64,000 bases of DNA, taken from UHGV virus genome UHGV-1366123. One strand, 5' to 3'. Positions 6,821-62,119 of the stretch are shown in pieces; position 1 is the first letter of the stretch; every line of letters begins with the position of its first letter. The notes under the pieces were generated by a model. The model did not search any database, was not told where the DNA came from, and was given only the letters and a program-made list of their open reading frames with translations. Made by a program: the position numbers and the translations under genes. This DNA comes from a virus.

Positions 6821-7963
6821 ATGAGCAACGAAGTTTTTGATTTTGGTGGGATTTTCGATATGAAGTCCGATGACTTCAAGCAGAAGGAAACCACCCAATT
6901 CTCCAACCCAGACTTTTACTCTCCTCGCATCGACGACGAGAATGTAAAGGACAACATCTATCAGTCAAAGCTGAGATTCCTACCAAATGTCAACGTCGCC
7001 CCCAACGGAGAGCGCACGAACATCGTAGTAAAGCACGTCTACTACGTTCCCGATCCAGATAACCCTGGGCAGAAGTGCTACATCGATGCACCATCGAACG
7101 AGCCTAAGGCGAAGGATATCGCATCTGTAGCGTTCATGATGTTCGGCTACGATAAGAGCAAGATCTACAGATCAGATGCTCCTGCAATCGTCAAGAAGAA
7201 TGCAAAGCAGTTGAAGCGCAACACCTACCACTACTCTTTGGTGCAGGTCATCAAGGACACACAACATCCAGAACTCGAAGGATCGGTAAAGATCTTCAGA
7301 TACGGTGGTGTGATCTACGAAAAGATCATGCAACTTATCAACGGTAACCCAGCTCTTGGGATCAATCCAATCATCCCATTCGATCCTCTCAATGGTAAGG
7401 AATTCATCATGGTTCTTTCCAAGGGTCAGAATGATCAAGGTCAAGAACTTAACACCTACATGCAGTCGAGATTCGTCGATGATCGTTCCGCAATCACGAT
7501 TGATGGACGAGAAATGACCGATTCTAATGAGGACAAGCAGGAGATCTTCAACTTCCTCAAGGAAAAGTCTCCCGATCTCTCACAGACGATGTTCCAAAAG
7601 ATGACGGAAGACGATGTTGAACGTCTCAATCGAGCAGTCCGTGATGTCATTGACGATGATAAGTGGTTCGGTATGGCTTATCAAGCATGTTATGGGAAGC
7701 CATTCATTCCCGATGCAGTCCGTGAATCTGTCGTGTCCACAGAGAAGTACGATGATGAAGATATCGAAGTCGAAGAACAGGTAGTCGAAGAACCAGTGAA
7801 GAAATCTCCACGACGAGAAGAACCAGCTTCCTCTACGATGTCCAAGTTCAAGTCCCTCAAGGAAGAAGCTGAAAAGCCTGCACCTGCAAAGAAGCCGACT
7901 GATAAGCAACCATCGATCTCTGACATGATGGAAGATATCGATGACGATCTCGACTTTGAATAG
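6821..7963 (+). CDS. single-stranded DNA-binding protein, T4 gp32-like
   Basis: KLRFLPNVN...KHVYYVPDP...KCYIDAPS core, with a long acidic C-terminal tail ending DDDLDFE. Confidence 0.6.
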   Translation: MSNEVFDFGGIFDMKSDDFKQKETTQFSNPDFYSPRIDDENVKDNIYQSKLRFLPNVNVAPNGERTNIVVKHVYYVPDPDNPGQKCYIDAPSNEPKAKDIASVAFMMFGYDKSKIYRSDAPAIVKKNAKQLKRNTYHYSLVQVIKDTQHPELEGSVKIFRYGGVIYEKIMQLINGNPALGINPIIPFDPLNGKEFIMVLSKGQNDQGQELNTYMQSRFVDDRSAITIDGREMTDSNEDKQEIFNFLKEKSPDLSQTMFQKMTEDDVERLNRAVRDVIDDDKWFGMAYQACYGKPFIPDAVRESVVSTEKYDDEDIEVEEQVVEEPVKKSPRREEPASSTMSKFKSLKEEAEKPAPAKKPTDKQPSISDMMEDIDDDLDFE

Positions 7964-7989
7964 CTAATTGATTGATGTTTAGTTGAAGC

Positions 7990-8031
7990 TTGAAGCCCCC
8001 TTGGATGTGAAAATGTTCAAGGGGGCTTCTG
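7990..8031 (+). terminator. terminator hairpin followed by a CTGTATAAGA motif
   Basis: gaagccccctt (7991-8001) pairs with aagggggcttc (8019-8029). Confidence 0.45.
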
Positions 8032-8041
8032 TATAAGATGA

Positions 8042-13174: not shown

Positions 13175-13621
13175 ATGACTGTAAAAGAACATATCAACAC
13201 ACTTAAATATCCAGGTGTCGTCTTTGCGTATATCGAATGTGTTTTAAAAGAAGGCATCGATGTAGTTGAGAATTTACGTGATCTCGATATAGAGAACGAC
13301 CAGTATGAAGATGTTAAAGATCTGGTCGATGAACTCGTAAAACAGGCAGACTATTGTTCTCTCGCTGATTATCCAATCATAACCAAAGAAGATGTTCTGA
13401 CATACTTTGAGGATTCCTATTGGGAATACCATGGTGAAAACGGAGAGTACATAAAACTCGTGGAATATAAGCGTGAATGGAAGAAAGATACATGGAACAA
13501 GTTCCGTCGATTGATTGAGAGAACTGTAGAGGATGTCAGAAGGGAAAATAATAGTAACGATACTTTGTATGAATGCAGAGGTTACTACTTTATAATCGAT
13601 CCTCAAGGGCACAACTCGTGA
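13175..13621 (+). CDS. acidic paralogue family member P8
   Basis: MTVKEHINTLKYPGVVFAYIECV...YPIITKEDVLTYFED...RGYYFII. Confidence 0.6.
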   Translation: MTVKEHINTLKYPGVVFAYIECVLKEGIDVVENLRDLDIENDQYEDVKDLVDELVKQADYCSLADYPIITKEDVLTYFEDSYWEYHGENGEYIKLVEYKREWKKDTWNKFRRLIERTVEDVRRENNSNDTLYECRGYYFIIDPQGHNS

Positions 13622-13722: not shown

Positions 13723-14058
13723 ATGACTATTAAAGAATACTTAGAAGGTCTCTTCGAATCGAAGATGTATCTCAAGTTTTACGAGTTGTTCGGTGACAGA
13801 TTCGGATTCTCTCTTGAAGATGACTATTCTCAGTTTGAAAAGAAAGTAGACTATTTCGTCGAAACTGCAGATATCGAATTCTTCTGTCTTGAAGAAAACC
13901 TCGAAGACACTGTTGACAAATTCTTCATCATTCCAATGTTGAAGAACATGAGCGACATCAGTTATATTCGAAAGTTCTTCGATTATGAATCGTATAAGCA
14001 GATGCTCATTGATCGTGGTTACACAGTCAAAGACAACTACGTGTTCTCACCATTCTAA
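13723..14058 (+). CDS. acidic paralogue family member P9 (divergent)
   Basis: MTIKEYLEGLFES...; track ORF 13648-14058 trimmed to the ATG after the hairpin. Confidence 0.5.
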   Translation: MTIKEYLEGLFESKMYLKFYELFGDRFGFSLEDDYSQFEKKVDYFVETADIEFFCLEENLEDTVDKFFIIPMLKNMSDISYIRKFFDYESYKQMLIDRGYTVKDNYVFSPF

Positions 14059-14576: not shown

Positions 14577-14990
14577 ATGACGACGACTATTAGAGACTAT
14601 ATCAGAGAAAACTGTCACATCGACTATGAAGCAGTGATCGCCTACTACGAAAGTGGCTATTGTAATGTTGAAGTCGATATCGACTTCGAATACGACGACG
14701 AAAAGGAAGCAGGGGAATTCGAGACTTCGGAAGATTACGATAACTACTACTCAGAAATCGACGTTCAGAAGGAACTCGCAGATGCGATCATCGAGAAGGC
14801 AGAAGAAAACTATCAGTGTGATGATGATGGATTCGAAGACATGGTAAACGAACTCTACATCGACCCATGTATTGAAGGTGCAGCTGATCCAGACACGATC
14901 TATCGTTACTTCGACTATGATAGTTTCAGACGTGACCTTCTGATGGGTGACTACTTCTATCAAGACGGTTATTACTTCCTCGCCTACTAG
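14577..14990 (+). CDS. acidic paralogue family member P11
   Basis: MTTTIRDYIRENCHIDYEAVIAYYE...DGYYFLAY; near-duplicate of P10. Confidence 0.55.
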   Translation: MTTTIRDYIRENCHIDYEAVIAYYESGYCNVEVDIDFEYDDEKEAGEFETSEDYDNYYSEIDVQKELADAIIEKAEENYQCDDDGFEDMVNELYIDPCIEGAADPDTIYRYFDYDSFRRDLLMGDYFYQDGYYFLAY

Positions 14991-15020
14991 TCGAGAGATT
15001 CATAATATCATAAAAATCAG

Positions 15021-15052
15021 AGAGGGCAAGGAAAACTATTTCCTTGCCCTCT
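15021..15052. terminator. bidirectional terminator hairpin between convergent genes
   Basis: agagggcaaggaaa-actatt-tccttgccctct. Confidence 0.45.
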
Positions 15053-15126
15053 CCTTGTGTTTGAGCCTATTTCTCCTTGCCGAACTACCTTCACAGTCGT
15101 CAGAGATCAAGGAAAGTACCTCTCCG

Positions 15127-15834
15127 TCATTTCCTCGATTCTCTCTTCTTCACATAGTCTTGTACTTCTTTTATCTTTGTTTTTACAATTTCCACATCTT
15201 TATGCTTTCCTATACCACTTCCGTCAAGATTTCTCCAATATCTCCAATAGATCGCTCTTATCTGCATCTTCTCGATGTATCTTATCGGGAACGTACAAAT
15301 CTTGTACCAATCTTCATATGAAACAATCATTGGTTTCGATTGGAATCTTTCAAGTCTGTATGATCTGATTGCAAATTCGAAACCGCTGTTTTGAAGGACT
15401 TTCTTTGCCACATCATAATAAAGCGGAATATCCAAGATCGGTGTTTCTCCAGCGTTTATCTTTTCTATGTTTGGACTTATGACTTGCGTATTCCAAAGCC
15501 TTATTATCGTGTCGAGAACCTTTATACGCATCGACGGAGGGATAAACGACAGGTTTATCCCATAAGGAAGAAGATGACCTTCCGATGTTATCTTATAACC
15601 TATTATGAAAGTCAATGGACACCATGAGAAGAAGTCCATTTCATCCTTAGTTATAGGATCATAGAACCACGTATAAATCTTGCCTATCTTTGGAATAGGT
15701 GTTCGAGATTCTTCTCTGGGGTTCTTCTCTTTCATAACATAAACGTCATCAAACCACTTCTTTGATCTACTGACGATAGTAGAGTAAGGCGTGGTCTCGG
15801 ACATTTTCATTATGGTTTCTGATACAAGCTCCAT
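15127..15834 (-). CDS. hypothetical protein
   Basis: 235-aa minus-strand ORF, convergent with the paralogue array. Confidence 0.4.
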   Translation of the reverse strand: MELVSETIMKMSETTPYSTIVSRSKKWFDDVYVMKEKNPREESRTPIPKIGKIYTWFYDPITKDEMDFFSWCPLTFIIGYKITSEGHLLPYGINLSFIPPSMRIKVLDTIIRLWNTQVISPNIEKINAGETPILDIPLYYDVAKKVLQNSGFEFAIRSYRLERFQSKPMIVSYEDWYKICTFPIRYIEKMQIRAIYWRYWRNLDGSGIGKHKDVEIVKTKIKEVQDYVKKRESRK

Positions 15835-22840: not shown

Positions 22841-22900
22841 GATATTCTTGAAGGCACAGAGAGGTATTTCCGTTGCGCTCTGTGCCTTCAAGAATATAAA
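22841..22900. terminator. 20-bp perfect inverted repeat hairpin carrying the TTTCC..TTGCGCTCTG core, followed by AATATAAAAAATCG
   Basis: atattcttgaaggcacagag ... ctctgtgccttcaagaatat. Confidence 0.45.
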
Positions 22901-33692: not shown

Positions 33693-35159
33693 GTGGGGGC
33701 TTTTCTGGAAATAAAAAGCAGAAAGCCCCCACTAACTATCTTCAAAAATTACAACAAGAAAATGGCTGTTGGATTTGGTCAGAACTTTGAGAACATAGCT
33801 TACGTTTACATAAACTCACAACCTCACCTTTGGAAATCTGTTGATCATGAGTTCTTCAAATCTCCAACTCTGAAGGCACTATCAAAGCTCACCAAACAAT
33901 TCTACGAAAGATTCCACGAGCAGATATTCTCTCCCGAAAATCCAAGTGTAGAGCAGATCGAATATCTCGTAATGGAAGACAAAAAGTCGTTTATGATTGA
34001 CTTGAACATGTCAGAGGACGACAATGCGAAGACTTTCATTGCGAACGCATCATACATCATCAAGACAAACATAAAAGCATTCTCTGAGGAATGGCTTGAC
34101 GAGACTGTTGGTGCATGGATAATGTGGCAAAACAACCAGCGAGCATATAAAGAATCAATCTCTTATATGCAGACACAGAATATCACACCCGAGAATGTAA
34201 AGGAAGTGATCTCCAAAGCACGAGAGATTGTGGTCAGAGGTTCATCTCTATCGTTTGGTGATGAGGAGGTCTTTGACTTCTATGATCCTCAATCTCACAA
34301 GCAGATTTCCGTGGAAGACTACATCGACACTGGCTACGAGATGCTCAACCAGATGCTCACGGAAGACAGACATAACGGATTCATACCTGGTACTCTCAAC
34401 ATGTTCATGGGTTCTACAAACTCTGGGAAATCGGTGATCCTTGGTAATCTTGCACTCAACATTTCAAGATCGGGTAAAAACGTGTTGTTTGTATCTGTGG
34501 AAATGTCAATCCCAAGAACTTTCCGACGAATCGGCTCTAACGCTTTTGACATTCCAATATCGGAATATGACACGTTCTCAAACGACGACGCACTTCTATC
34601 AGAATCTATACAAAAGTTCAGAGCAAAGAACATGAACATTGGTGTACCACCAGGCAAGTTCCTCGCCTTGAAGTTCCCAAAGACTGGTGTCTCAAACATT
34701 TATGGAACTGCAAAGCGACTGGAAGAGAAGCATGGGATAAAGTGGCATGCAATCGTAATTGACTATTTCACGGAACTACAAAACGATCACGGCACGGCAC
34801 AAGATAAAACGTATCAATACCACAAGCAAAATGCTGATGATCTCTACCAAATGGCTTCAGAGACGAATTGGTGTGTGATAACTGCCCATCAGTTAAATCG
34901 AGGTGCTTTGAACATGTCCGATATGACACTTTCATCTGTTGCTGAATCTTACGGTATTGTTTACAGATGCGATAGTGTTATCGGGATGATTGCCACTGAG
35001 AAGATGCAGGTCGAACACACGATGTACATGAAGAATCTGAAATGTCGTGATTCGAAATACAAGAACTTCTTCGCAAAGTTTGATACAGAATTCTCAAAGA
35101 TGAGAATCATAGAAACTGGGGAACTCATAAGCCCAGAAGATTATCAGATCTTCACATAG
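33693..35159 (+). CDS. DnaB-like replicative helicase (gp41-like)
   Basis: Walker A MFMGSTNSGKSVILGNLALN; VLFVSVEMS; RecA-fold C-terminal domain. Confidence 0.7.
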   Translation: MGAFLEIKSRKPPLTIFKNYNKKMAVGFGQNFENIAYVYINSQPHLWKSVDHEFFKSPTLKALSKLTKQFYERFHEQIFSPENPSVEQIEYLVMEDKKSFMIDLNMSEDDNAKTFIANASYIIKTNIKAFSEEWLDETVGAWIMWQNNQRAYKESISYMQTQNITPENVKEVISKAREIVVRGSSLSFGDEEVFDFYDPQSHKQISVEDYIDTGYEMLNQMLTEDRHNGFIPGTLNMFMGSTNSGKSVILGNLALNISRSGKNVLFVSVEMSIPRTFRRIGSNAFDIPISEYDTFSNDDALLSESIQKFRAKNMNIGVPPGKFLALKFPKTGVSNIYGTAKRLEEKHGIKWHAIVIDYFTELQNDHGTAQDKTYQYHKQNADDLYQMASETNWCVITAHQLNRGALNMSDMTLSSVAESYGIVYRCDSVIGMIATEKMQVEHTMYMKNLKCRDSKYKNFFAKFDTEFSKMRIIETGELISPEDYQIFT

Positions 35160-35332
35160 GTCTCCGAACTCAAGGAAGGTACTTTCCTTGCACTCTGATG
35201 GTATTGGTGGTACTTACATAGCATCGAAGGCAAGAAAGCCCAAGGAAAAGGCAAAGAGAAAGCCCAACAACTTCTATCAAGTTGTTGGGCTTTCTCGTTA
35301 TTAATCAATGATTATTGGTTGATGGATGGTTT

Positions 35333-40435: not shown

Positions 40436-40912
40436 ATGCTTCAAAATCCTAATCCGAATAACGTCAGAGGTTATAAACAAGGTTACTACATTCCAATCAA
40501 TAAGGACAAGTTTGTTGGTCATTTGAATAAAGAAGGTGTTCCGTACAGATCATCTTTGGAACTCAAGTTCATGAGACTTATTGATTCGAATCCGAATGTA
40601 GAAAAGTGGACATACGAACACCCCGACACAAAGATCTCATATTTCGATCCAATGATGCAAAAACAGAGGACTTATTACCCAGATTTTTGGATGCAGATGA
40701 GAGTGAAGGGAGAACTTAAAACGTTCCTCATAGAAGTAAAACCCTACTCTCAAACCCAGATTCCGAAGAAATCTACAAGGAAATCGAAATCGACATATAG
40801 TAGAGAACTACAGACAAATCTGAATGTTGAAGTAAAGAGAAGATCTGCAGAAAAGTTCTGTGCAGAGAGAGGTTGGAAATATCTCTTTGTGACAGAGAAG
40901 TTCTTCAAGTGA
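40436..40912 (+). CDS. putative PD-(D/E)xK nuclease
   Basis: YYPDFWMQMRVKGELKTFLIEVK (D..E.K). Confidence 0.35.
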   Translation: MLQNPNPNNVRGYKQGYYIPINKDKFVGHLNKEGVPYRSSLELKFMRLIDSNPNVEKWTYEHPDTKISYFDPMMQKQRTYYPDFWMQMRVKGELKTFLIEVKPYSQTQIPKKSTRKSKSTYSRELQTNLNVEVKRRSAEKFCAERGWKYLFVTEKFFK

Positions 40913-40935
40913 AGGATACCTCTTCTGATTAAAGA

Positions 40936-41027
40936 GAGGTACTTTCCTTGAGCTTGGAGGTACTTGGAGGTACTTTCACCCCACCGATAATTCTCGAATG
41001 CAAGGAAAGTACCTCTCTTTAATTCGA
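40936..41027. repeat. palindromic ~90-bp element copy
   Basis: agaggtactttccttgagc ... gcaaggaaagtacctctc, flanked by cctcttctgatta / tttaattcgac. Confidence 0.5.
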
Positions 41028-41145
41028 CAAACCAGAATAACTTCGAAGGTTGATCTAAAGACAATCCCGATATACAGAAAAGGCGACAACTCTCTAAATC
41101 GAGTTGTCGCCTTTTCAACAACAAAAAGTGGTATCACATACGATG

Positions 41146-41216
41146 TTGTCCCTCATTGATTCGAACAAAGACTAACAGAGCCAAGGTCTGTTGTGCTACC
41201 ATTACACCAAAGGACA
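41146..41216 (-). tRNA. tRNA-Gln(TTG) candidate
   Basis: Acceptor TGTCCTT/AGGGACA with 2 GU pairs; D-arm GTGTAATGGTAGCAC; anticodon stem ACAGA/TCTGT, loop CCTTGGC (C33 is unusual); T-loop TTCGAAT. Confidence 0.5.
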
Positions 41217-41260
41217 ATTCGAATGTCCCTCCGCCGTCTACTACGTTCAAGGGACTGATG

Positions 41261-41335
41261 GGTGATGGATGGGACTTGAACCCACAACCAATAGAACCAC
41301 AACCTATTGCTCTAACCAATTTGAGCTACCATCAC
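41261..41335 (-). tRNA. tRNA-His(GTG)
   Basis: GTGATGG acceptor; D-arm GCTC-AAATTGGTTA-GAGC; anticodon loop TTGTGGT; T-arm GTGGG-TTCAAGT-CCCAT; 3' CCATCAC. Confidence 0.7.
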
Positions 41336-41423
41336 AGACGTAGTGAGAGGTTTCGCTCCTCTGAATATCTTCATCAAGAAGCACTACGTTTGATAAAAAG
41401 GTGGCGAGTTGTCCATACTCTTC

Positions 41424-41496
41424 TCAGTCTGGTAGGATTCGAACCTACATCATCTAAGAACCACCTTATAGGAATTTCCGATTATTCTACAGACTG
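41424..41496 (-). tRNA. tRNA-like gene with an aberrant anticodon arm (4-bp stem, 6-nt loop)
   Basis: Perfect acceptor CAGTCTG/CAGACTG, D-arm GAAT-AATCGGAA-ATTC, T-arm GTAGG-TTCGAAT-CCTAC, but the anticodon region TATAAGGTGGTTCTTAG does not fold canonically. Confidence 0.4.
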
Positions 41497-41862
41497 AACA
41501 ACAAACGATAATGAAGATTCAAAATGCTGAATATCTGCAAATCGGAAACTATGATTGATTCATCTTTTAGACAGCTATGGACAATACCGAATGGGGTATC
41601 AAACCAGTAACTTGAAGATTTTTATAGATTGCTGTAAGTCCATAATCTAAAAGACGTTTTTTCTATCTTTTTCGTCGAAATCTTTACTGCAGACGTTATC
41701 TATGAGCCAATTATGAAGATTCTGTTTGCTGTGTGTCTACAGATCCCGACATTAAGAATTCTTTAAAAGAACGCTTTGTGAATGATGACTTCCCAGTGGA
41801 CTACGTAGTTTTAGGAGCAATTGCATAGTAATTTGCTGTGAATCCAATAGATCATCATTTTG

Positions 41863-41947
41863 AGGAAGAACAGGGATTCGAACCCTGGGAACCTTGCAGT
41901 TCAACGGTTTTCAAGACCGTCGCAATCGACCACTCTGCCACTCTTCC
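41863..41947 (-). tRNA. tRNA-Ser(TGA), type II with long variable arm
   Basis: Acceptor GGAAGAG; anticodon arm ACGGT-CTTGAAA-ACCGT; long variable arm; T-arm CAGGG-TTCGAAT-CCCTG. Confidence 0.65.
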
Positions 41948-42292
41948 AATATTGAGAAAACGATGGAAATCAGACTTACACTATAATCCCGAAACGTCAC
42001 GATCTCGATCATCCAACCCCGTGGAAATCAGTACCACTTAGAGATTTAGCTTTAGAAAGTTGGACGACTTTCATCGATTTTCTCAAGCACCTTTTTTGTT
42101 GACAACCAGCAACTTAGGAGATAACACCCATTAGAGCAATGACCTTCCCATATTCATAGGTCTTCTCTGGATAGAGTTGATGTTCAATATTGCGATGCCT
42201 TCTCAAAATCCCAACCCTATGAAAGACTTCTCAAAGACAACCGTTGTATATCGTTTCAAACGGTACTAAGTCGCTTTTTCTTTTTATTTTTG

Positions 42293-42362
42293 CGAAGAGA
42301 AGAGGGATCGAACCTCTCTGATCTTTATGGCTAGATCATCAGACCTTTTTCTGAATCTCTTC
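42293..42362 (-). tRNA. tRNA-like gene with a non-canonical anticodon arm (8-nt loop AGCCATAA, or 10-nt loop)
   Basis: Acceptor GAAGAGA/TCTCTTC, D-arm CAGA-AAAAGG-TCTG, T-arm AGAGG-TTCGATC-CCTCT; the anticodon arm folds as GATCT-AGCCATAA-AGATC. Confidence 0.35.
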
Positions 42363-42405
42363 ATAAGTCTTATTATTTGATCTTCTTATCGGTTTCGTTT
42401 CTTTT

Positions 42406-42873
42406 TTATGTCCGTACAATATAAGCATCATAACCATACTGCAAACCATCAAAATAAGAGCTTATGTATTCATAACAACCTCGTAATGTTAGATATGCGT
42501 AATAGTCTGATCTTGAATTGTAGTTGCCATTTTGATAGCTATAACAAGCATTGGAGAAGTTGCTTATAAGCCGTTCCAATTTGGCAATGGTTTCATCAAC
42601 CTCTTCAGACGACTTCCAACGTAAGTGACTTAGTTTCACTCCTATAATGAAATCATCGATTTCTCGTTGATTTCTTTTTATCGTGAGCTTAAACTCATAG
42701 GGGCTGTCATAAGGATCGTCTTTGATATGTTCACGTGTCTTTGTTGTTGTTATTTCAACTTCAAACATCGGTTCTCCATCGTAATATATCGTCTGTACAG
42801 ATTGGAATATCTTGATGTTTGTCTTGTACACACCTCTATCAAGACCTTCATAAAACTCTGTAGGGCTAATCAT
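42406..42873 (-). CDS. hypothetical protein
   Basis: 155-aa minus-strand ORF. Confidence 0.35.
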   Translation of the reverse strand: MISPTEFYEGLDRGVYKTNIKIFQSVQTIYYDGEPMFEVEITTTKTREHIKDDPYDSPYEFKLTIKRNQREIDDFIIGVKLSHLRWKSSEEVDETIAKLERLISNFSNACYSYQNGNYNSRSDYYAYLTLRGCYEYISSYFDGLQYGYDAYIVRT

Positions 42874-42892
42874 TGATCTCTGTTTGATCAGT

Positions 42893-43846
42893 TCATTTAG
42901 TCGTAGTTTGTTTCTTCTTGATGATCATTCTAAAATAAGTCTGCTCGCCATTCACAGACAAATATTTCCCGTCGTTTCCCCTTCTGGATGTCACAATCTC
43001 AAATTGTTGAGGATTGAATTTATACAAGAATGTTATCGGAACCCCCATGCAACCATTGTAATCTCGTGGTATATCCTTGACCCTATCGACATTTATACCA
43101 TCATAATTGTCGTATTTGGGATATTCATGTTCGTGTCCATAGTAGTTTTTTGTAAGCGGAATATCTTCATGTCGCATAGAGTGGTTCAAATTCGTAAACC
43201 ACAGACAATTATTGGTGGGCGTGATCATATTACCAGATTCGTCCATCCATGTTTTTTTCATGTAGGGTTCATAATGGGCTGGTATGATAAACCCAGAAAA
43301 TTCGTTCCCACGATTTACACCAAGCCATGCCTTACCATCTTGAACGGATTTGAAGATTTCTTTGTTGGTGATAGAATTGATATTCCCAATAATGAGAAAG
43401 AGCTTATCGTATCTGATCAGTTGTGTCATATATTCACGGAACAACGAAAATGGTGGATTTGTAACAACTATGTCAGATTGTTCCAGCAAATCGATACTTT
43501 CTTGACTACGAAAGTCGCCATCACCATTGAAGTAAACAACATCAGCTGTCTTTGGATCTGTATCGACGAGTTCTGTCCCTGTGTATTCAAAGAAAAAACC
43601 ACGACTGTTTTCCTTATAACAAGATGCAATCACCTTCCGAAGTCCCAATTCTTTGAAATTGGAAACGAAGTATTTGAAAAAGTTACTCGTCAGAGGATCA
43701 TCACAATTGCAATACACAACTTTCCCTTTAAAATGGCTTTCATAATGTCGCAATTCTCTTTCGATATCAATAAGTTGCGTATAGAACTCGTCGTTCTTTT
43801 GCTTTCTAGCATTACGAAGTAACTTGCTGGTTGTTGCCCTTGCCAT
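42893..43846 (-). CDS. DNA N6-adenine (amino) methyltransferase
   Basis: DIVVTNPPF catalytic motif IV (NPPF), DEFYTQ N-terminal motif, CNCDDP. Confidence 0.55.
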   Translation of the reverse strand: MARATTSKLLRNARKQKNDEFYTQLIDIERELRHYESHFKGKVVYCNCDDPLTSNFFKYFVSNFKELGLRKVIASCYKENSRGFFFEYTGTELVDTDPKTADVVYFNGDGDFRSQESIDLLEQSDIVVTNPPFSLFREYMTQLIRYDKLFLIIGNINSITNKEIFKSVQDGKAWLGVNRGNEFSGFIIPAHYEPYMKKTWMDESGNMITPTNNCLWFTNLNHSMRHEDIPLTKNYYGHEHEYPKYDNYDGINVDRVKDIPRDYNGCMGVPITFLYKFNPQQFEIVTSRRGNDGKYLSVNGEQTYFRMIIKKKQTTTK

Positions 43847-43849
43847 ATT

Positions 43850-44300
43850 TCCGTCTTTTAATATAAATCTTCAGAATAGAGAATCGTCTTATCTTTTACA
43901 TCTTCTATTTGATCAGCTTCTTTAGCTATCTTACAAACTTCATACCTATCAACAAATATCACTTTAGAAGTGTAGAAGCCTTATCGTATGTGAAAAATCT
44001 GCGTTTTATCCAGTTCTCACTTCTTGTTTCAACCTGCCATTACTTTTTAGGAACACGAGGTTCGGTCATCCATAAGAGGGCAGTCCGCAAGCGTAAATTC
44101 GGTGCTACGAACACCTACTCGATTTTTTATATGTTAGACAGTTTGAAGTTTTCTTTGTCCTTCAATGAGAATGTTCTTCGAAGCGTTTATATCTCTGTCG
44201 TGATATTCACCACATTCGGGACAAGTCCAAAACCTATCACCGAGTTTCAAGTCTTTCTTCTTGTAACCACAACATAAACAAGTCTTTGAACTTGGATAGA
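43850..44300 (-). ncRNA. putative omega-RNA/right-end region of the TnpB element (boundaries unknown)
   Basis: Inference only: omega-RNAs of IS200/IS605 TnpB overlap the 3' end of tnpB and extend into the downstream non-coding DNA; a 287-bp non-coding stretch follows the tnpB stop. Confidence 0.25.
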
Positions 44301-45276
44301 ACCTATTGATAAGAACAACTCGCTTATCATTCATAAGAGCCTTATATTGCAATATCGACTTGAACCGATAAAATCCAGACTCTTGGATAGCATTCGCAAG
44401 ATAACGATTTCCAAGCATCCCTTTAATATTCAAGTCTTCCATGAACACCACGTCGTATGATTTGAGGATCTCGTTCACAACTGAGTGGATGTAGTTCTCT
44501 TTCTTGTTCGTTATATTCGCAATCACTTTTGCAAGTCTGATTCTCTGTTTGTTCCTATTGTTTGAACCTTTGACCTTTCTGGATAGTTGACGATGAAGTC
44601 TTGTGATCTTCTTTTCCTCCTTCTTGAAGAAGTGTTTGTTTTCAAACACAAATCCATCAGAGGTTATGACGAAATCTTTCACACCAAGATCAATACCGAC
44701 TTGCTTGTTGGTCTTTTCAAACTTTACAAATTCTGCTTCGGGAATGTCGATAAGGATTGATAAGAAGAAATTCCCACTCTTGGTTTTCGAGAGAGTTGCA
44801 CTTCTTATGTTATCTTTGTACTTCTGTAAGCGTTTGTGATACAAGTCAGAACAACGGAATCTGAGTTTTTGAAGAGAAGTGATTAGTGTTATATGTTTCG
44901 TTTCGAAAGTGTTCCTCTTTGAAATAGCATTACGAGGAAACAATGCTGATTGTTTGTCTTTCTTTGATTTAAACTTTGGAAAGCCTTTATGATGATTGAA
45001 GAAGTTTTGATAAGCACCGACCATCTGTTTGATTGCTTGGTTCATCACCTTTGTGTTCTGTTCTCTCAACCAAGCATATTGTTCATCTTTCAACAATGAT
45101 CCGTGGAAATATTTCGATAGATCGCTTTCGCTTAGGTTTGTCTTGTCCGTTTCATAAGCCTTTTGTTTTCTATCGAGCATGTGATTATAGACAAAACGAT
45201 AAGCACCAAGAACCTTGTTGAGTTCTTGTTCCTGCGCTTTGTTTGGATATAACCTTATTTTAATCGCTCTAAACAT
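44134..45276 (-). CDS. tnpB: TnpB (IS200/IS605-family OrfB, RNA-guided RuvC-like endonuclease)
   Basis: N-terminus MFRAIKIRLYPNKAQEQELNKVLGAYRFVYN; C-terminal zinc finger CLCCGYKKKDLKLGDRFWTCPECGEYHDRDINASKNI. Confidence 0.8.
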   Translation of the reverse strand: MFRAIKIRLYPNKAQEQELNKVLGAYRFVYNHMLDRKQKAYETDKTNLSESDLSKYFHGSLLKDEQYAWLREQNTKVMNQAIKQMVGAYQNFFNHHKGFPKFKSKKDKQSALFPRNAISKRNTFETKHITLITSLQKLRFRCSDLYHKRLQKYKDNIRSATLSKTKSGNFFLSILIDIPEAEFVKFEKTNKQVGIDLGVKDFVITSDGFVFENKHFFKKEEKKITRLHRQLSRKVKGSNNRNKQRIRLAKVIANITNKKENYIHSVVNEILKSYDVVFMEDLNIKGMLGNRYLANAIQESGFYRFKSILQYKALMNDKRVVLINRFYPSSKTCLCCGYKKKDLKLGDRFWTCPECGEYHDRDINASKNILIEGQRKLQTV

Positions 45277-45295
45277 GCCTATGATTGATTATCCA

Positions 45296-45520
45296 TTACA
45301 GATCTTTTTCTTCTGCTAATATCCTATCGAATTCCAATCTCAGACAGCGAAGATAGCCGTTCATGTATTCATACTTAGTCTGCTGGAAGAACTTCTCATC
45401 TGGTGTCAACTTCTCAAACTCTAAAGATTGGATGAAATCGAGTTGCTTCAAAGTGACTTCTTTGAACCTTTCATAGCTCTTTAAAGCTTTCCGTCTCCTC
45501 TGTCCAAATTCTTCAAACAT
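45296..45520 (-). CDS. hypothetical small protein
   Basis: 74-aa minus-strand ORF ending 19 bp before tnpB. Confidence 0.3.
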   Translation of the reverse strand: MFEEFGQRRRKALKSYERFKEVTLKQLDFIQSLEFEKLTPDEKFFQQTKYEYMNGYLRCLRLEFDRILAEEKDL

Positions 45521-45526
45521 AACCTA

Positions 45527-45739
45527 TTAATCATTAGAGATTTTTGTAACAGCACCGAACTTCTTCAACTTTTCTGCAAGATCAAGGACATCTTGATCGT
45601 TCTCTGATTCATATAGAACTGGTTCATTCTGACGGACAAGTTCCATGGCATAACTCAAAGAAATCTTTCGATAATCCATCAAGCACTTTATAACTTGAAG
45701 AGGTGCTTGACCTTTGTCTATGAGAATCAGCTTATACAT
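45527..45739 (-). CDS. ribosomal protein bL12 (L7/L12) C-terminal-domain-like or ClpS-like mini-protein
   Basis: YKLILIDKGQAPLQVIKCLMDY..ISLSYAMELVRQNEPVLYES..DVLDLAEKLKKFGAVTKI aligns by eye to the bL12 CTD ([52 protein letters not shown]); ClpS has the same fold and a similar N-terminal pattern. Confidence 0.5.
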   Translation of the reverse strand: MYKLILIDKGQAPLQVIKCLMDYRKISLSYAMELVRQNEPVLYESENDQDVLDLAEKLKKFGAVTKISND

Positions 45740-45764
45740 TTTGCTTGTTTTTATTTTTAAAAAG

Positions 45765-45831
45765 TGCTTCGTGAAGGATTCGAACCTTCATCAATTCCGT
45801 CGAATCGCTCTGGCCATTGAGCTAACGAAGC
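45765..45831 (-). tRNA. truncated tRNA-like gene; the anticodon arm is replaced by a short tetraloop hairpin
   Basis: Acceptor GCTTCGT/ACGAAGC, D-arm GCTC-AATGGCCA-GAGC, T-arm GAAGG-TTCGAAT-CCTTC, but only 16 nt (GATTC-GACG-GAATT) lie between the D-arm and T-arm. Confidence 0.4.
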
Positions 45832-46033
45832 CCTCATAGATTCCCAGTTTTAACGGAAACTGTGGCGGACTATGAACCCCTGCGTGAAACCGCACTTGAA
45901 CTTCAACCAAGATCTGTACGTACTTTAACCCAAGTGATAGGTTTTGAACCCTAATTGAAGCAGAACTATTCCCATTCTGAGAGGGGACGTTATCAACTTA
46001 AAAATTGGTGAAACGTCCTAAAGTCAACATCGG

Positions 46034-46106
46034 TACGCCATGAAGGATTTGAACCTTCGACCGCCAAGGTATAAGCTTGGAACTCTAACCACTGAGTTAA
46101 TGGCGC
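46034..46106 (-). tRNA. tRNA-Ile(TAT) candidate
   Basis: Acceptor GCGCCAT/ATGGCGT; D-arm ACTC-AGTGGTTA-GAGT; anticodon arm CCAAG-CTTATAC-CTTGG; T-arm GAAGG-TTCAAAT-CCTTC. Confidence 0.6.
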
Positions 46107-46141
46107 ATTTTCATCTTTCTATTTTCTTATTGATGGATCTT

Positions 46142-46687
46142 TTAGAACGTTTTACTGTATCCAAAAACGTCGGAAAGATCTCTCAGAGAATCATTCATAA
46201 GTATCTCGTGGACATTGTTGTAAACCGTACCAAGAAGATTCGATCCTCTCCATTTCGATTTATCAACTATACGAATATCAGTTTCAGAAAGTCCACATCC
46301 CCAGATTTTGTCATAAGGACTGGCTTCTACAAACTCATAACCTTCATTAATTAGTTGTGTGTAGTGATCTCTGATTTTCTTTGAAGATCTTAGTTTCATC
46401 AGTACCACAAAGAGCATCACATCATATCTGACAGATGACCAACGACCATCATTGTAGTTTCGAACAAGTCTTCCAAGCTCTTTACAAAAACGTGGGTTAT
46501 CAGAATTCTTGAGGATCTGCATTGCGATATCTTCGTCTCCGAAGTACTTTGCTTTCAAGAACATGAACAATGATTCACCGCAATGGAAAACAAGACCATT
46601 ATAGTTGATCTCGGATTTATAGAAGTTGCTGTAAAAATCCGAACCAGTGAAGAAAGTCACCAATTTATGATCTTTGAAAATCTTCAT
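46142..46687 (-). CDS. NADAR/YbiA-like (DUF1768) protein
   Basis: FFTGSDFYSNFYKSEINYNGLVFHCGESLFMFLKAKYF...PRFCKELGR...RWSSVRYDVMLFVVLMKL...DKIWGCG matches the NADAR pattern. Confidence 0.55.
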   Translation of the reverse strand: MKIFKDHKLVTFFTGSDFYSNFYKSEINYNGLVFHCGESLFMFLKAKYFGDEDIAMQILKNSDNPRFCKELGRLVRNYNDGRWSSVRYDVMLFVVLMKLRSSKKIRDHYTQLINEGYEFVEASPYDKIWGCGLSETDIRIVDKSKWRGSNLLGTVYNNVHEILMNDSLRDLSDVFGYSKTF

Positions 46688-46709
46688 CGTGTCTCTTGTT
46701 CTTTTTTTG

Positions 46710-46782
46710 TGATTCCAGTGGGGCTTGAACCCACAACCCCTGCATTAAAAGTGCAGTGCTCTACCTGTTGAGCTATGAAATC
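46710..46782 (-). tRNA. tRNA-Lys(TTT)
   Basis: Acceptor GATTTCA/TGGAATC; D-arm GCTC-AACAGGTA-GAGC; anticodon arm CTGCA-CTTTTAA-TGCAG; T-arm GTGGG-TTCAAGC-CCCAC. Confidence 0.65.
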
Positions 46783-46922
46783 TAAACCATTGTTCTAAGC
46801 GAATCTCTTCAAGTGAATGATTAATCGCTTCGGTATTCTTATTGTGAATGTCAAGATATTAGTTTCAATGATAGTTACCAACAGCTATTGGAGATTATCA
46901 ACAAATATTAGCAGTTCCCATG

Positions 46923-46998
46923 CCAAGAAGACCCCCCCCCGATGAATTGATTCTTTTTTATCAAAAAGAATCAATTCATCGGGGGGGGGTCTTCTTGG
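46923..46998. repeat. 76-bp perfect palindrome (36-bp arms, 4-nt loop) with C9/G9 tracts
   Basis: ccaagaagacccccccccgatgaattgattcttttt-tatc-aaaaagaatcaattcatcgggggggggtcttcttgg. Confidence 0.7.
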
Positions 46999-47016
46999 AG
47001 ATTATCGTTTATGGGT

Positions 47017-47067
47017 GAAGATTGAAGATTGAAGATTGAAGATTGAAGATTGAAGATTGAAGATTGG
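47017..47067. repeat. tandem heptamer repeat (GAAGATT) x7
   Basis: gaagattgaagattgaagattgaagattgaagattgaagattgg. Confidence 0.7.
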
Positions 47068-47120
47068 CTTCCGCATATTGAAGAAATGTGTTAAAGTGTA
47101 TTATCAACTGATACGCTTTA

Positions 47121-47203
47121 AAGGAAGGTATTTTCCTTGCGCTCTGAGAGGTTCAAGAATATGAAAATAGCGGAGAATAGATCAGAGCGCAAGGAAAGTA
47201 CCA
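47121..47203. repeat. palindromic ~85-bp element, copy A
   Basis: aaggaaggtattttccttgcgctctga ... tcagagcgcaaggaaagtacc, with inner core gaatatgaaaatagcggaga. Confidence 0.6.
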
Positions 47204-47411
47204 AGGAAAGCCAAGGAGACATATCCTTTGGAATGATGGGTTTCTGTCGGGAGACAATGACTATTTCCAAGGATTATGAGAAGACTATGACAATAATGGA
47301 GGACAATGGAAGATTATCAATGACTTGAAAGACAATGGTTGGAAAATGACTGATTTTTAGAGGATTATCAGAGGACTATCTTTTGGAAAATGGTTGGTGA
47401 TTATCGAATTA

Positions 47412-47493
47412 AAGGAAGGTACTTTCCTTGTCCTCGAAGCTATTCGAGAATATGAAAATAGCGGAGACCATACTCGAGTTCAAGGAAAGTACC
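47412..47493. repeat. palindromic ~85-bp element, copy B
   Basis: aaggaaggtactttccttgtcctcgaag ... ctcgagttcaaggaaagtacc; same inner core. Confidence 0.6.
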
Positions 47494-47559
47494 AAGGAAA
47501 TCCAAGGAGACATATTTTCGAGGATTATGGTCTCTGTGGCTAATGGGAGGAATATCTTG

Positions 47560-47960
47560 GAAAGAGAATATCAGTTTAAAGGTGTTAAAAGGTGTTAATC
47601 TGTTCGGGGATTTAGTGAAGGTCTTTTTTAAAGTTTTACGCATGCGTTTTTTAAAGTTTTACGTGCGTGCGCTTTTTTTTGGAGTTTCACGCATGCGTTT
47701 TTTAAAGTTTCGCAACACGCACCTGGTACTTTTGGTTTAAACTGGAGATTTAAAAACATGCGCACGACATGTTTCTGCGCTCAATGTATGGTTTGGGGCA
47801 GCCTGGCTTGGCACTATCGTGCCAAGGCTGACCCCAAACCAGTTGTAAATACTTTGTATTTACGATAAAACTGGAAAAAAATAACGCATGCGTATACGGG
47901 TATACACGGGAATTCGCGCGTTTTTTCAAAGTTTCGTGTATACGCACGGTTTGTCGGCAA
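47560..47960. repeat. GC-rich island with a triplicated ACGCATGCGTTTTTTAAAGTTTT motif and multiple palindromes
   Basis: Three copies of (c)acgcatgcgttttttaaagttt; long hairpin ggtttggggcagcctggcttggcac-tatc-gtgccaaggctgaccccaaacc; gtatacgggtatacacg / cgtgtatacgcacg. Confidence 0.55.
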
Positions 47961-48229
47961 ATTCCGAGATTAGTCTGATTATCTTTCAATTTCAGTCTTT
48001 CAATTTTCAACTTTCCATTCAAAATCAGTTAACAATTCTTAACAATTCTCTGTTCTTGGAATGATTATCTTTCAATTTCAATCTTTCAATCTCTCTTTGA
48101 ATAATCATCCATTGTCTTTCCAAGAATCATAGTCTTTCCAAGAATCATAAATATCTCGGGAATCATCAATGGTCTCTTTCAATTGTTCTGGTCTGTTCTG
48201 GGATTAAAAAGACTAATTTTGATTTTCAA

Positions 48230-49340
48230 CTTTCCCTTTCCACAATAAAACCATTTAGTGATTGTCTTTTGTCTTCAAAACGATTATCATTAAAGGGGCG
48301 GAAATCTATGATTCAGACAAAAGTCATCTTCTATTAACAAATCTTTAGAGAATTCTTTCAATCTTTAGAGAAATTTTTCAAAGAGACTATGACTTTTTCT
48401 ATTGTCTTTGATAATCTTTTCACGATCCTCTATTGTCTTGGTGATTCTTTGATGATCAGTCATTGTCTTTGATTATGGTTGATTGTCTTCCATAGTCTTC
48501 TGATAATCACTGACAATAGTCATTGTCTTCCGACAATCATACCACCATTCAACAGAATACCTCTTCTGATTACAGGAAGGTACTTTCCTTGCGCTCTGAT
48601 CCATTTTCCGCTATTTCTATCCCACCGAATGTCTTCGAGGACAAGGAAAGTACCTTCCTTTAATTCAACCATTCTCAACCATTTTCTGGTAGATCATCTT
48701 CATAATCATTCAAAGAACCAGTTGTGAAGACGGTCATCATTGTCTTTCCATAATCCTTTGATGGTCAGTCATTGTCTTTGATTGTTTTCCATAGTCAGTC
48801 ATTGTCTTTGATTATGGTCGATTGTCTTTCCATAGTCTTCTCATAATCCTTCGAAATAGTCATTGTCTCCCGACAGAAACCCATAATCCTCGAGAATATG
48901 TCTCCTGATTACAGGAAGGTACTTTCCTTGAACTCGAGTATGGTCTCCGCTATTTTCATATTCTTGAATATCTCAGAGCGCAAGGAAAGTACCTCGTCTT
49001 AATTAATGAATCAGAACTATTGTCTCTTCATAGTCTTCTGATAATACTTCAATAATCGTCCATTGTCTTTCAATAATCAGCCATTGTCTTCCGATTATGG
49101 TCGATTGTCTTTGATGATTGTTGATTGTCTTTGATGATTGTTGATTGTCTTCCATAATCAGTCATTATCTTGGATAGTCTTCCATAATCCTTCGAAATGG
49201 TCTATTGTCTTCGGATGATGACCCATAGTCCCCGAGAATACCTCTCCTTGGCTCTCCTTGGTACTTTCCTTGCATTCTGATACACTTTCCGCTATTTTCA
49301 TATTCTCGGGCTATTTCGAGGACAAGGAAAGTACCTCTCT
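48230..49340. repeat. three tandem ~340-bp direct repeats rich in CATTGTCTT(T/C) sub-repeats; each ends in a palindromic element copy (C 48573-48660, D 48912-48996, E 49251-49338)
   Basis: Repeated gtcattgtctttgattatggtcgattgtctt(c/t)ccata(g/a)tc... blocks; each terminates with (c)ctcttctgattacaggaaggtactttccttg...caaggaaagtacct...ttaatt. Confidence 0.55.
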
Positions 49341-49479
49341 TTAATTCACAACTCTGTGACCATTTCTCCAGCCAATTTTCTGATTATTGCTGGAAGGTCA
49401 ATGTTTGGATACAGATGTGGGGAGAAGAAATCAAACTTCTCCCCACATTCTTCTTTTTGATTTGTAGGTTTCTTTTCTT

Positions 49480-53327: not shown

Positions 53328-53384
53328 CATTTATCAGATTGGGCTGTCGGGGAGAAATCTCGACAGCCCAATCTGTATAAGAAC
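53328..53384 (+). terminator. terminator hairpin plus CTGTATAAGAAC motif
   Basis: gattgggctgtcgg...ccgacagcccaatc. Confidence 0.45.
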
Positions 53385-53406
53385 AAAAAACCAATCACTC
53401 TTAACA

Positions 53407-61473: not shown

Positions 61474-61935
61474 ATGGCGAAGAAGGTTGTAGAGAACATG
61501 CTGTGGTCTACAGAACGTGTAGAGAAGCTCATACAGGAATTCAACGACAAGGGTGTACTTCCCAAGAAGAATCCGTTTTATAGTGGTGATGTTCGCTTGA
61601 GGAAACCACGTATCAACTTCTCATACACAGAGGATGAACTTCTTGAACTTGCAAAGGTTCAAGATTCTGTCTTGTACTTCTCAGAAAATCTGGCCAAGGT
61701 AAAAACTGATGATGGTATCAAGCATATCAAACTGAGACCATATCAGACAAGAATCATCCAACAGCTTCAGTATTACAGACACAACGTCATCCTTGCTTCA
61801 CGTCAGATTGGGAAAAGTAAAGGCTGGGGATCTGTTATAAATGGACTCGAAGGTGACTTCAAGATTTCTGACCTCTTCCCTCGAACACTCATCAATAGAC
61901 TAAGATCAAAGCTGTATTCGACGATCTATGGGTAA
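61474..61935 (+). CDS. terL: large terminase N-terminal fragment (N-extein with Walker A) fused to a 39-aa intein N-fragment
   Basis: LRPYQTRIIQQL...NVILASRQIGK, then SKGWGSVINGLEGDFKISDLFPRTLINRLRSKLYSTIYG (Hint block-A-like). Its partner, the IntC-plus-ATPase ORF, is at 745-1827. Confidence 0.7.
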   Translation: MAKKVVENMLWSTERVEKLIQEFNDKGVLPKKNPFYSGDVRLRKPRINFSYTEDELLELAKVQDSVLYFSENLAKVKTDDGIKHIKLRPYQTRIIQQLQYYRHNVILASRQIGKSKGWGSVINGLEGDFKISDLFPRTLINRLRSKLYSTIYG

Positions 61936-61944
61936 ACGACTTCA

Positions 61945-62028
61945 CGGAAGGCACTTTCCTTGCGCTCTGAAGATTTCGGTGTTGTTCTCATAGCTCTTTG
62001 ATATACAGAGCGCAAGGAAAGCACCTCG
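61945..62028. repeat. palindromic ~85-bp element, copy H
   Basis: cggaaggcactttccttgcgctctga ... cagagcgcaaggaaagcacc. Confidence 0.55.
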
Positions 62029-62039
62029 TCTTTATCCGA

Positions 62040-62098
62040 AGATATATTCGAAAACCGATTGGGGTCATCTGATGCTATTTTCAGATGACCCCAATCGG
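62040..62098. terminator. bidirectional terminator hairpin
   Basis: aaaaccgattggggtcatctga ... tcagatgaccccaatcggtttt. Confidence 0.5.
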
Positions 62099-62119
62099 TT
62101 TTCTTATTTCTCTTTCCTT

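Follow-up and report, generated by a model that had tools for sequence, protein, structure and literature searches.

What keeps a family of palindromic repeats in the genome of a phage, and are such repeats there because they move or because something reads them? The question is raised by a 64,000-nucleotide stretch of the viral genome UHGV-1366123 (hereafter the window, meaning this whole stretch), in which short palindromic elements are crowded into one noncoding region and occur elsewhere just after the ends of genes. A preliminary description of the locus regarded them as resembling MITEs (miniature inverted-repeat transposable elements) and offered as possible explanations that they are mobile, that they are recognition sites for a homing endonuclease or another protein, or that they are a family of regulated terminators. 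As explained below, the elements are built around pairs of inverted 13-nt arms that scarcely change and that occupy fixed positions in one lineage of T4-like phages. We favor, tentatively and with something less than even confidence, a reading in which the arms serve as cis-acting sites, fixed in position, that are recognized by a sequence-specific factor, which would probably act on DNA.

The family itself is readily confirmed. With up to two mismatches allowed, the arm core TTTCCTTGCGCTCTGA has 9 matches in the window against 0.05 expected, a number reached by none of 100 shuffles, and all the copies previously enumerated, the five clustered ones as well as the intergenic ones at gene ends, were found in their places (Table 1). 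Each copy contains two inverted, invariant arms of 13 nt, GGTACTTTCCTTG and CAAGGAAAGTACC, and it is this arm, not the 27-nt inverted terminus first proposed, that constitutes the conserved unit, since the adjoining GCGCTCTGA is just one among several variants; the terminal inverted repeats are exact over 13 bp and reach about 24-27 bp in some copies. The length had been put at ~85 bp and is better given as 76 nt between the outer arm ends, or about 125-150 nt with the conserved flanks detected by nhmmer. There are about ten copies per 64 kb and ~15-20 per 150 kb. According to a profile derived from the clustered copies, the unit is about 145-150 nt long, has polarity and has fuzzy ends, with similarity continuing into asymmetric flanks, one of which is either AGAATAnnTCTyCTGATTAcAGGAA or the direct array CTCTCCTTGGCTTTCCTTGG, and the other TyyCTTTAATTC; both outer flanks are pyrimidine- and T-rich, as in TCTCTTTAATT. 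The core GAATATGAAAATAGCGGAGA, described earlier as conserved between the arms, does occur in the cluster, where all copies but one of the five have it, and the dispersed copies have diverged interiors to which that description does not extend.

The distance between the arms is nearly as constant as the arms themselves. Seven window copies have both arms with no more than one mismatch per arm, and in all seven the arms are exactly 63 nt apart, start to start. The same spacing was obtained for 68 of 69 pairs, and an unbiased scan of gaps between 36 and 66 nt returned a gap of 50 nt in nearly all exact pairs (49 at one orthologous site and 52 in one copy). This spacing is held even where the interiors are only weakly alike. 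The 9-mer at the core of the arm, CTTTCCTTG, also occurs beside the arms in direct arrays, with copies 10-12 nt apart; the flank of clustered unit 1 bears additional CAAGGAAAG motifs in direct orientation, at 47202 and at 47212, and the left flank of unit 5 is the direct array CTCTCCTTGG CTCTCCTTGG TACTTTCCTTG. At the site that follows the helicase gene, direct 9-mers replace the right arm at 35230-35262, a state that is kept in eight genomes, and the right-arm position (35241, CAAGGAAAAGGCA) is made up of phased degenerate 9-mers, CAAGAAAGCC CAAGGAAAAGG CAAAGAGAAAG, about 11 nt apart. Arrays of this kind would not be predicted by a hairpin or stem and would be predicted if a factor reads the motif itself.

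Two arms that had been taken for "solo" arms, at 35178 and 15108, turn out to belong to full-length copies in which the second arm is degenerate (CAAGGAAAAGGCA at 35241 and TGCCCTCTCCTTG at 15045). The hairpin at 22841-22900 had been called a relative of the elements; it does belong to the family, as a rearranged, "inside-out" member with the arm in the loop and not as a simple copy. The 3' half of its stem bears the interior motif TTCAAGAATAT, which lies inverted beside the in-loop arm, and in its orthologue at position 1267 of L045 (L numbers designate loci from other genomes) the arm is exact and the stem differs in part.

Table 1. Positions of the palindromic elements, of the direct arrays of their arm core and of the associated noncoding regions (window coordinates unless another locus is named)
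Feature	Position	Strand	Arms	Remarks
Clustered unit 1	47097-47241	-	47127-47139 (GGTATTTTCCTTG, 1 mismatch), 47190-47202	nhmmer 126.0
Clustered unit 2	47384-47532	-	47418-47430, 47481-47493	nhmmer 133.3
Clustered unit 3	48542-48687	+	48579-48591, 48642-48654	nhmmer 114.3; variant interior ...CCGCTATTTCTATCCCACCGAAT...
Clustered unit 4	48879-49025	+	48918-48930, 48981-48993	nhmmer 131.1
Clustered unit 5	49221-49368	+	49260-49272, 49323-49335	nhmmer 131.9
Dispersed copy	40910-41042	+	starts 40938, 41001	directly after stop of gp4-like head-completion gene (40436-40912); bidirectional terminator 41084-41117 downstream
Dispersed copy	61925-62050	unassigned	GGCACTTTCCTTG, CAAGGAAAGCACC; starts 61950, 62013	after 153-aa terminase-like fragment gene (61474-61935); followed by terminator hairpin 62053-62100
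Dispersed copy	35149-35278	unassigned	left arm 35178-35190 intact	after DnaB-like helicase gene (33693-35159); terminator 35256-35296 follows
Dispersed copy	15020-15127	unassigned	right arm 15108-15120 exact; left arm 15045-15057 degenerate	between converging genes 14577-14990 (+) and 15127-15834 (-); small palindrome CAAGGAAA-ACTA-TTTCCTTG at 15027-15046
Rearranged "inside-out" member	22841-22900	+	degenerate arm GGTATTTCCGTTG in loop	19-20-bp hairpin; weak nhmmer match
Direct CTTTCCTTG arrays	47190/47202/47212; 49242/49252/49264; 15038/49
Repeat-cluster region	46900-49450	unassigned		2.4 kb, noncoding, without long open reading frame; contains the five clustered units
Paralogous region, outside window	L031 3031-4557; L021 12390-13818; L007 ~6850-8000
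Structured module	47730-47875			within the repeat-cluster region
Structured-module paralogues	L031 3280-3420; L007 ~7800-7930; L048 12928-13066

Comparison of the copies among related genomes indicates which part of the element resists change. The arms are identical at all 13 positions in most of about 90 copies, the flanking genes differing by ~7-15% at the DNA level, and they are exact in L048 though the neighboring 550-aa protein is only 80% identical there. The copy at the helicase site is kept even in L045 (at 11417/11479), whose helicase is 79% identical; each of its arms has one change, the spacing is 62 and the inner stem is not complementary. In the copy that follows the terminase fragment, which has orthologues in L002, L004, L006 and L032, GTAC is changed to GCAC on the same strand in both arms, a change that is non-compensatory, and all arm substitutions encountered are one-sided, with none compensatory. 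The stems behave in the same way. When a model of 30 pairs was applied to 23 diverse copies, 77.0% of positions were paired as compared with 77.3% in column shuffles, and the covariation score of the stem was 0.075 as compared with 0.077. Nor was a strand bias of G-U pairs seen, as 8 changes keep G-U on one strand only and 4 on the other (one frame-shifted copy was set aside for this count). The structured module that lies ~300 nt away provides an internal positive control for this lack of covariation, since pairing in its two hairpins is maintained by compensatory changes, which affect 6 of the 27 pairs in a set of just 8 sequences.

The interiors, by comparison with the arms, are mosaic at one and the same orthologous site. 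Where the element follows the gp4-like gene, one interior is common to the window, L001 and L011, whereas L012, L026 and L008 have the canonical core and L009 is a chimera. On the gene strand, the core is ATGAAAATAGC in L048 and GCTATTTTCAT in L012, L009 and L026, within the same asymmetric flanks, which constitutes one clear flip of the interior between lineages; we claim a flip for L048 alone, position-weight scoring of orientation being too ambiguous at the helicase and terminase sites. The arms, being the only long stretches that are identical, presumably serve as joints at which recombination exchanges, and occasionally flips, the interiors of copies. A reading of the element as an invertible promoter (inverton) was also considered, and neither a recombinase nor an internal promoter was found for it by Pfam and motif scans. 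The homology that the copies share through their interiors implies that the family has multiplied within the genome at some time.

Whether multiplication continues was examined by comparing the elements, each with 300-400 nt of flank, with other loci in which both flanks align. More than 300 flank-to-flank comparisons revealed no empty site, the distance between flanks being the length of the element, and hence none of the presence/absence polymorphism among relatives by which the preliminary description had proposed to judge mobility. Most loci had been retrieved through the element, which biases the sample against empty sites, yet long loci span several sites and all of these are occupied. 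Within clusters the flank distance is sometimes larger, as the numbers of units differ, and the one case of a short distance is a tandem double site at which both copies are present. Every relative that covers the site of a dispersed copy has that copy at the same position, and inspection of the sequences flanking the dispersed copies detected no direct repeats that might represent target-site duplications. The sole transposase-like gene, a TnpB/OrfB_IS605 gene of 380 aa at 44134-45276 on the minus strand, 2 kb from the cluster, is not accompanied by TnpA, and a link between it and the elements was rejected for want of any arm-like sequence at either gene end; the gene is kept in relatives at about 88-92% DNA identity, including L048 (16463-17605). 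Among 88 further open reading frames (ORFs) scanned with Pfam, 46 of them in the window and 42 in about 70 kb of genome outside it, none was recognized as encoding a recombinase or a transposase of the Y1/RAYT or DDE type. Judged by these comparisons, the elements are fixed, lineage-specific cis-acting sites and not active mobile DNA, and the MITE interpretation is, as far as present-day mobility is concerned, largely refuted.

The family is also narrowly distributed. Scans for arm pairs in viral and metagenome collections gave matches in a single lineage of T4-like phages, so that the consensus does recur beyond the window, in related phage contigs that have several exact pairs each; several of these contigs are 144-151 kb long and about 85-93% identical to the window. 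Paired arms had no match in 185,579 bacterial and archaeal species, represented by one genome each, and a single extended arm had ten scattered matches in unrelated phyla with a maximum of one per genome, which together argue that the element belongs to the phage lineage and not to its host. No such repeats were found in L050, where the neighboring protein is 42% identical. An analogous family in L046 (57%-identical helicase) has a different palindrome, TATGACAAGTTGTCATATGAC, and was set aside as a separate family, not a counterpart, because a similar ATGACA/TGTCAT motif is also found within the present lineage (L017). This second, ATGACA..TGTCAT palindrome family is intergenic in both clades (L017 9300-9440; L046 3575-3633 and 11475-11531).

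All copies of the element are intergenic. Of the five junctions in the window at which genes converge, four hold the dispersed copies, each of them just past a stop codon, and three of these copies are then followed by a separate terminator hairpin. Dispersed copies all begin ~5-100 nt from a stop codon, and elsewhere in the genome copies are also found between tandem genes, either right after the stop or between a terminator and a motif resembling a late promoter. The asymmetric parts are not uniformly oriented with respect to transcription, being sense at 40938 and antisense in L025. Most copies adjoin conserved core genes (for the helicase, head completion and the terminase fragment) and not variable small ORFs.

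From these features of the sequence we infer a DNA-binding protein and a part for the elements as insulators or organizers. The functional part would be the 13-nt arm with its core 9-mer, present as an inverted pair whose ~63-nt spacing corresponds to about six helical turns. Each arm would be read separately by a sequence-specific factor, most likely a phage-encoded protein that binds double-stranded DNA; two bound arms would face the same side of the helix and might form one complex, which the extra direct 9-mers ~10-12 nt away would extend. Such complexes might mark the 3' ends of genes and the junctions of transcription units as insulators or roadblocks, arrays of them might bracket two noncoding regions that resemble origins or RNA genes, and the arms might double as recombination joints, with interiors swapped or flipped between copies. 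Among the possibilities raised in the preliminary description, that of protein-recognition sites would fit best with the invariant arms, the stems without covariation, the near-fixed spacing and the direct 9-mer arrays; specific support for a homing-endonuclease site is lacking. It is conceivable, but in our estimation unlikely, that the phage has a whole organizing system of this kind, in which one protein and about 15-20 paired sites per genome would insulate adjoining and converging units and bracket two paralogous loci, each with its structured module, that may be origins or noncoding RNA genes. Such a system would be one not previously described.

Several observations weigh against recognition of the arms on DNA. 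The spacing is not absolute, as it is 62, 63, 59 and 63 in L048 and 65 in L019. The copy at 22841 has its arm in the loop of a hairpin whose stem is partly covarying, which hints at recognition of a single strand. The absence of covariation is itself weak evidence, inasmuch as copies swap halves by recombination and the arms never vary. No candidate for the binding protein has emerged, Pfam and PHROGs having provided no clear helix-turn-helix protein or regulator in the window and the ~70 kb beyond it. If transcribed, many copies would form perfect duplexes of 18-27 bp, and the copies lie where transcripts end, so a role in RNA would be natural.

An RNA hairpin is the alternative that we take most seriously, though we think it considerably more doubtful than likely. 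The arms would pair in the 3' untranslated RNA as a stem of 13-27 bp that terminates transcription from either side, shields the message from 3' exonucleases or is cleaved by RNase III, and the clustered copies would shape noncoding transcripts. The position of the dispersed copies so close to stop codons is what this explanation would predict, folding predictions give strong stems (-37 to -55 kcal/mol for a span of 126 nt, with up to 24-27 bp perfect), the outer flanks are rich in T, and in two instances between tandem genes, L025 1322 and L017 9459, no further hairpin was evident, on reading of the sequence, from the stop codon up to the following promoter-like motif. However, the variable positions of the stem do not covary, no G-U strand bias is seen, and structure alone would not hold 13 nt invariant or predict the direct arrays. 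The loop of ~50 nt is to be compared with 3-8 nt in intrinsic terminators, the T-rich flank is only partially like the U tract of the latter, and the terminator scan called neighbors of the elements (35256-35296 and 49414-49449) and not the elements themselves. With canonical terminators adjoining copies at three window sites (Table 1) and also in L034 and L035, the long loop argues against a simple terminator. The non-uniform orientation of the asymmetric parts is a further difficulty, and folding energies were unusable for the choice of a strand, the bottom strand being on average only slightly more stable (-38.7 as compared with -37.0 kcal/mol). Neither is the element a known RNA family, as no Rfam family matched it at E values up to 1.

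The same exchanges of interiors that we attribute to recombination at protein-binding arms might alternatively be the very purpose of the elements, if these were recombination cassettes similar to the PeSLs of T4-type phages, with arms kept as short homologies or as nuclease or recombinase sites for the shuffling of sequence. The mosaic interiors, the L009 chimera, the L048 inversion and the variable numbers and orientations of clustered units would all be accommodated, as would the different gene order found in relatives for the 41-47 kb stretch between the copy at 40938 and the cluster, and the PeSLs of T4-like phages provide a precedent (PMC4122927). This would explain shuffling but not the invariance of the arms against mutation, which extends down to 80% protein identity. 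In addition, there is no associated recombinase or homing nuclease in the Pfam scans, most copies are next to conserved core genes, and the elements lack what defines a PeSL, namely its sigma-70-like promoter, Shine-Dalgarno sequence and start codon. We regard cassettes as improbable. We consider it very improbable that the elements are selfish, MITE- or REPIN-like DNA that a transposase moves, or recently moved, by way of the inverted arms. They are small, noncoding and intergenic, number ~10 in 64 kb, have arms like terminal inverted repeats, share the interior homology of a family that once multiplied and have a TnpB gene at 2 kb; near-fixed paired inverted units also recall REPINs. Against this stand the fuzzy ends, the occupied sites without target-site duplications, the lack of a transposase with matching ends and the restriction of the family to one phage lineage. 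Two other candidates were rejected, namely a small ORF from the ATG of the core (bottom strand, MKIAE...), the residues of which are unconserved and interrupted by stops in some variants (ATG TAA at the helicase site; the GGGTAGAAATAGCGG variants), and a promoter within the element, from which both upstream motif types of this phage (TAAATAACGAAA-like, and a hairpin with ATCTGTATAAGA) are missing and in which a sigma-70 scan remained at background. On these grounds the element would be classified as a dispersed cis-acting intergenic repeat and not as a MITE, a PeSL, an intrinsic terminator or a member of a curated RNA family.

The elements have parallels among repeats in other systems. By architecture and position, the closest analogy would seem to be with the bacterial REP, BIME and REPIN elements, which are conserved, partly palindromic, extragenic units in inverted pairs at near-fixed spacing, typically located either past a stop codon and ahead of a terminator or where two genes converge, and mostly fixed among close relatives. 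The REP/BIME elements of E. coli bind IHF and gyrase and also stabilize mRNA, and the REPINs of Pseudomonas are paired inverted units at near-fixed spacing. The present family differs in residing in a phage genome, in the unrelated sequence of its unit, in having two large arrays in iteron-rich noncoding regions, in that no RAYT (Y1) gene was found in the window or in the 42 ORFs outside it, and in its absence from the bacterial and archaeal species searched. Stoperators of the cluster A mycobacteriophages are read by one phage protein, which blocks elongation. They are likewise short invariant motifs, found ~20-30 times per phage genome and mainly where genes end, in short intergenic gaps, but they are single asymmetric sites of 13-14 bp oriented with transcription, whereas the sites described here are inverted pairs ~63 nt apart with phased direct copies; furthermore, no repressor is known for this phage, which looks lytic. 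MITEs share with the elements the small size, the noncoding and intergenic character, the many copies and the arms similar to terminal inverted repeats, and the differences lie in target-site duplications, insertion polymorphism, a cognate transposase and copies in host genomes, none of which were found here. In a PeSL a short stem-loop comes before a sigma-70-like promoter, then a Shine-Dalgarno sequence and the start codon of the next gene; PeSLs are located upstream of small genes in hyperplastic regions (PMC4122927). They too are dispersed intergenic repeats of T4-like myoviruses with a stem-loop and are tied to exchange and variable regions (PMC4122927, PMC2839356); the present elements differ from them in having no such promoter, in their long inverted arms 50 nt apart and in their location after core genes. 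The hairpin with the ATCTGTATAAGA motif, found elsewhere in this phage, looks more PeSL-like than the elements do. A literature search for an equivalent of the elements returned PeSL papers and general surveys of MITEs only.

Dispersed conserved repeats of phages have rarely been explained, and those that have been are concerned with the control of transcription or the reshuffling of genes. Stoperators, PeSLs and nut sites are examples. The family described here is unusually clean in its invariant 13-mers, near-fixed spacing and fixed positions; the 13-mer might be used as bait for the factor, and the family flags two large noncoding regions of an uncultured T4-like lineage as possible origins or RNA genes, so that candidate origins can now be tested. 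It also serves as a caution that an element may be palindromic, repeated and intergenic without being a MITE.

In the repeat-cluster region, two inverted units on the left and three on the right enclose CATTGTCTT-type iterons with a spacing of ~10 nt, and the region also holds T6AAAGTTT/ACGCATGCG repeats and the structured module. The same genomes have a second, paralogous noncoding iteron region, between a diverging gene pair, with three palindromic units; each of the two regions contains iterons, units, the structured module and A/T-rich repeats that include palindromes of the ACGCATGCG type. Among relatives the number and orientation of the clustered units vary (2+3, 1+3, 0+3). In appearance, each region might be a replication origin or a locus for noncoding RNA. 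The structured module, of ~145 nt (...TCTGCGCTCAATGTATGGTTTGG[hairpin]CCAAACCAGTTGTAAATACTTTGTATTTAC), occurs twice per genome, has no Rfam match and may represent either a novel structured RNA or an element of an origin. Bordering the region are an inverted repeat, perfect over 36 bp, that has a loop of 4 nt and contains a C9/G9 run (46923-46998, between the tRNA-Lys gene and the repeats), which has no T tract on either side, and, at the edge of the cluster, a tandem repeat of about seven TGAAGAT copies (47016-47066), in place of which L048 has about ten GTCAATCTTTA copies at 13380-13480.

By protein family scans (Pfam, PHROGs), the window derives from a distant T4-like myovirus. Its predicted proteins include a UvsX-like recombinase, DnaB-like and Dda-like helicases and a clamp loader, as well as a gp2-like DNA end protector, the gp4-like head-completion protein and baseplate wedge proteins, together with GroEL, SbcC-like and SbcD-type metallophosphoesterase proteins, an EcoRI-like methylase and TnpB; there are seven tRNA genes. 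Megablast found no near-identical cultured phage and none that is close at the DNA level. The best match of the capsid protein, at 39.5% identity, is to Flavobacterium phage MaF61, with more distant kinship to the PAU, Lak and Tenacibaculum jumbo phages.

Some other features of this genome deserve mention. The large terminase subunit appears to be split into separate ORFs ~60 kb apart (61474-61935, 745-1827 and 1880-2698 of the window), the 153-aa ORF corresponding to positions 91-170 of the phrog_5989 profile and the 360-aa ORF to positions 170-330 of the same profile; one of the palindromic elements lies directly 3' of the first fragment. The gene for the family B DNA polymerase may be split as well, since the ORF at 3385-4881 matches the N-terminal half of the profile only (12-496 of 856) and a second DNA_pol_B match exists among ORFs from other genome loci. 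The motif TAAATAACGAAA / TAAATAAG, which resembles the T4 late promoter TATAAATA, precedes the start codons of structural genes by 15-30 nt (upstream of 29904, 37224, 36676(-), 17904, 52719 and 63526(-)). At other places, shortly before start codons, a hairpin is followed immediately by (A/T)TCTGTAT(A/T)AGA (for example 7990-8041, 13725-13770, 53350-53406 and, on the minus strand, 49449-49400), an arrangement suggestive of either a terminator and promoter combined or a signal for processing. The element at 40938 and the repeat cluster enclose the variable 41-47 kb stretch; within it, the order of genes in 41145-46782 (tRNAs, methylase, TnpB and NADAR) differs in relatives, the blocks 42407-42879 and 42869-43824, for instance, being swapped in L033. 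At 45765-45831, Rfam recognizes a tRNA that ARAGORN missed, and ARAGORN reports an odd tRNA at 41423-41497.

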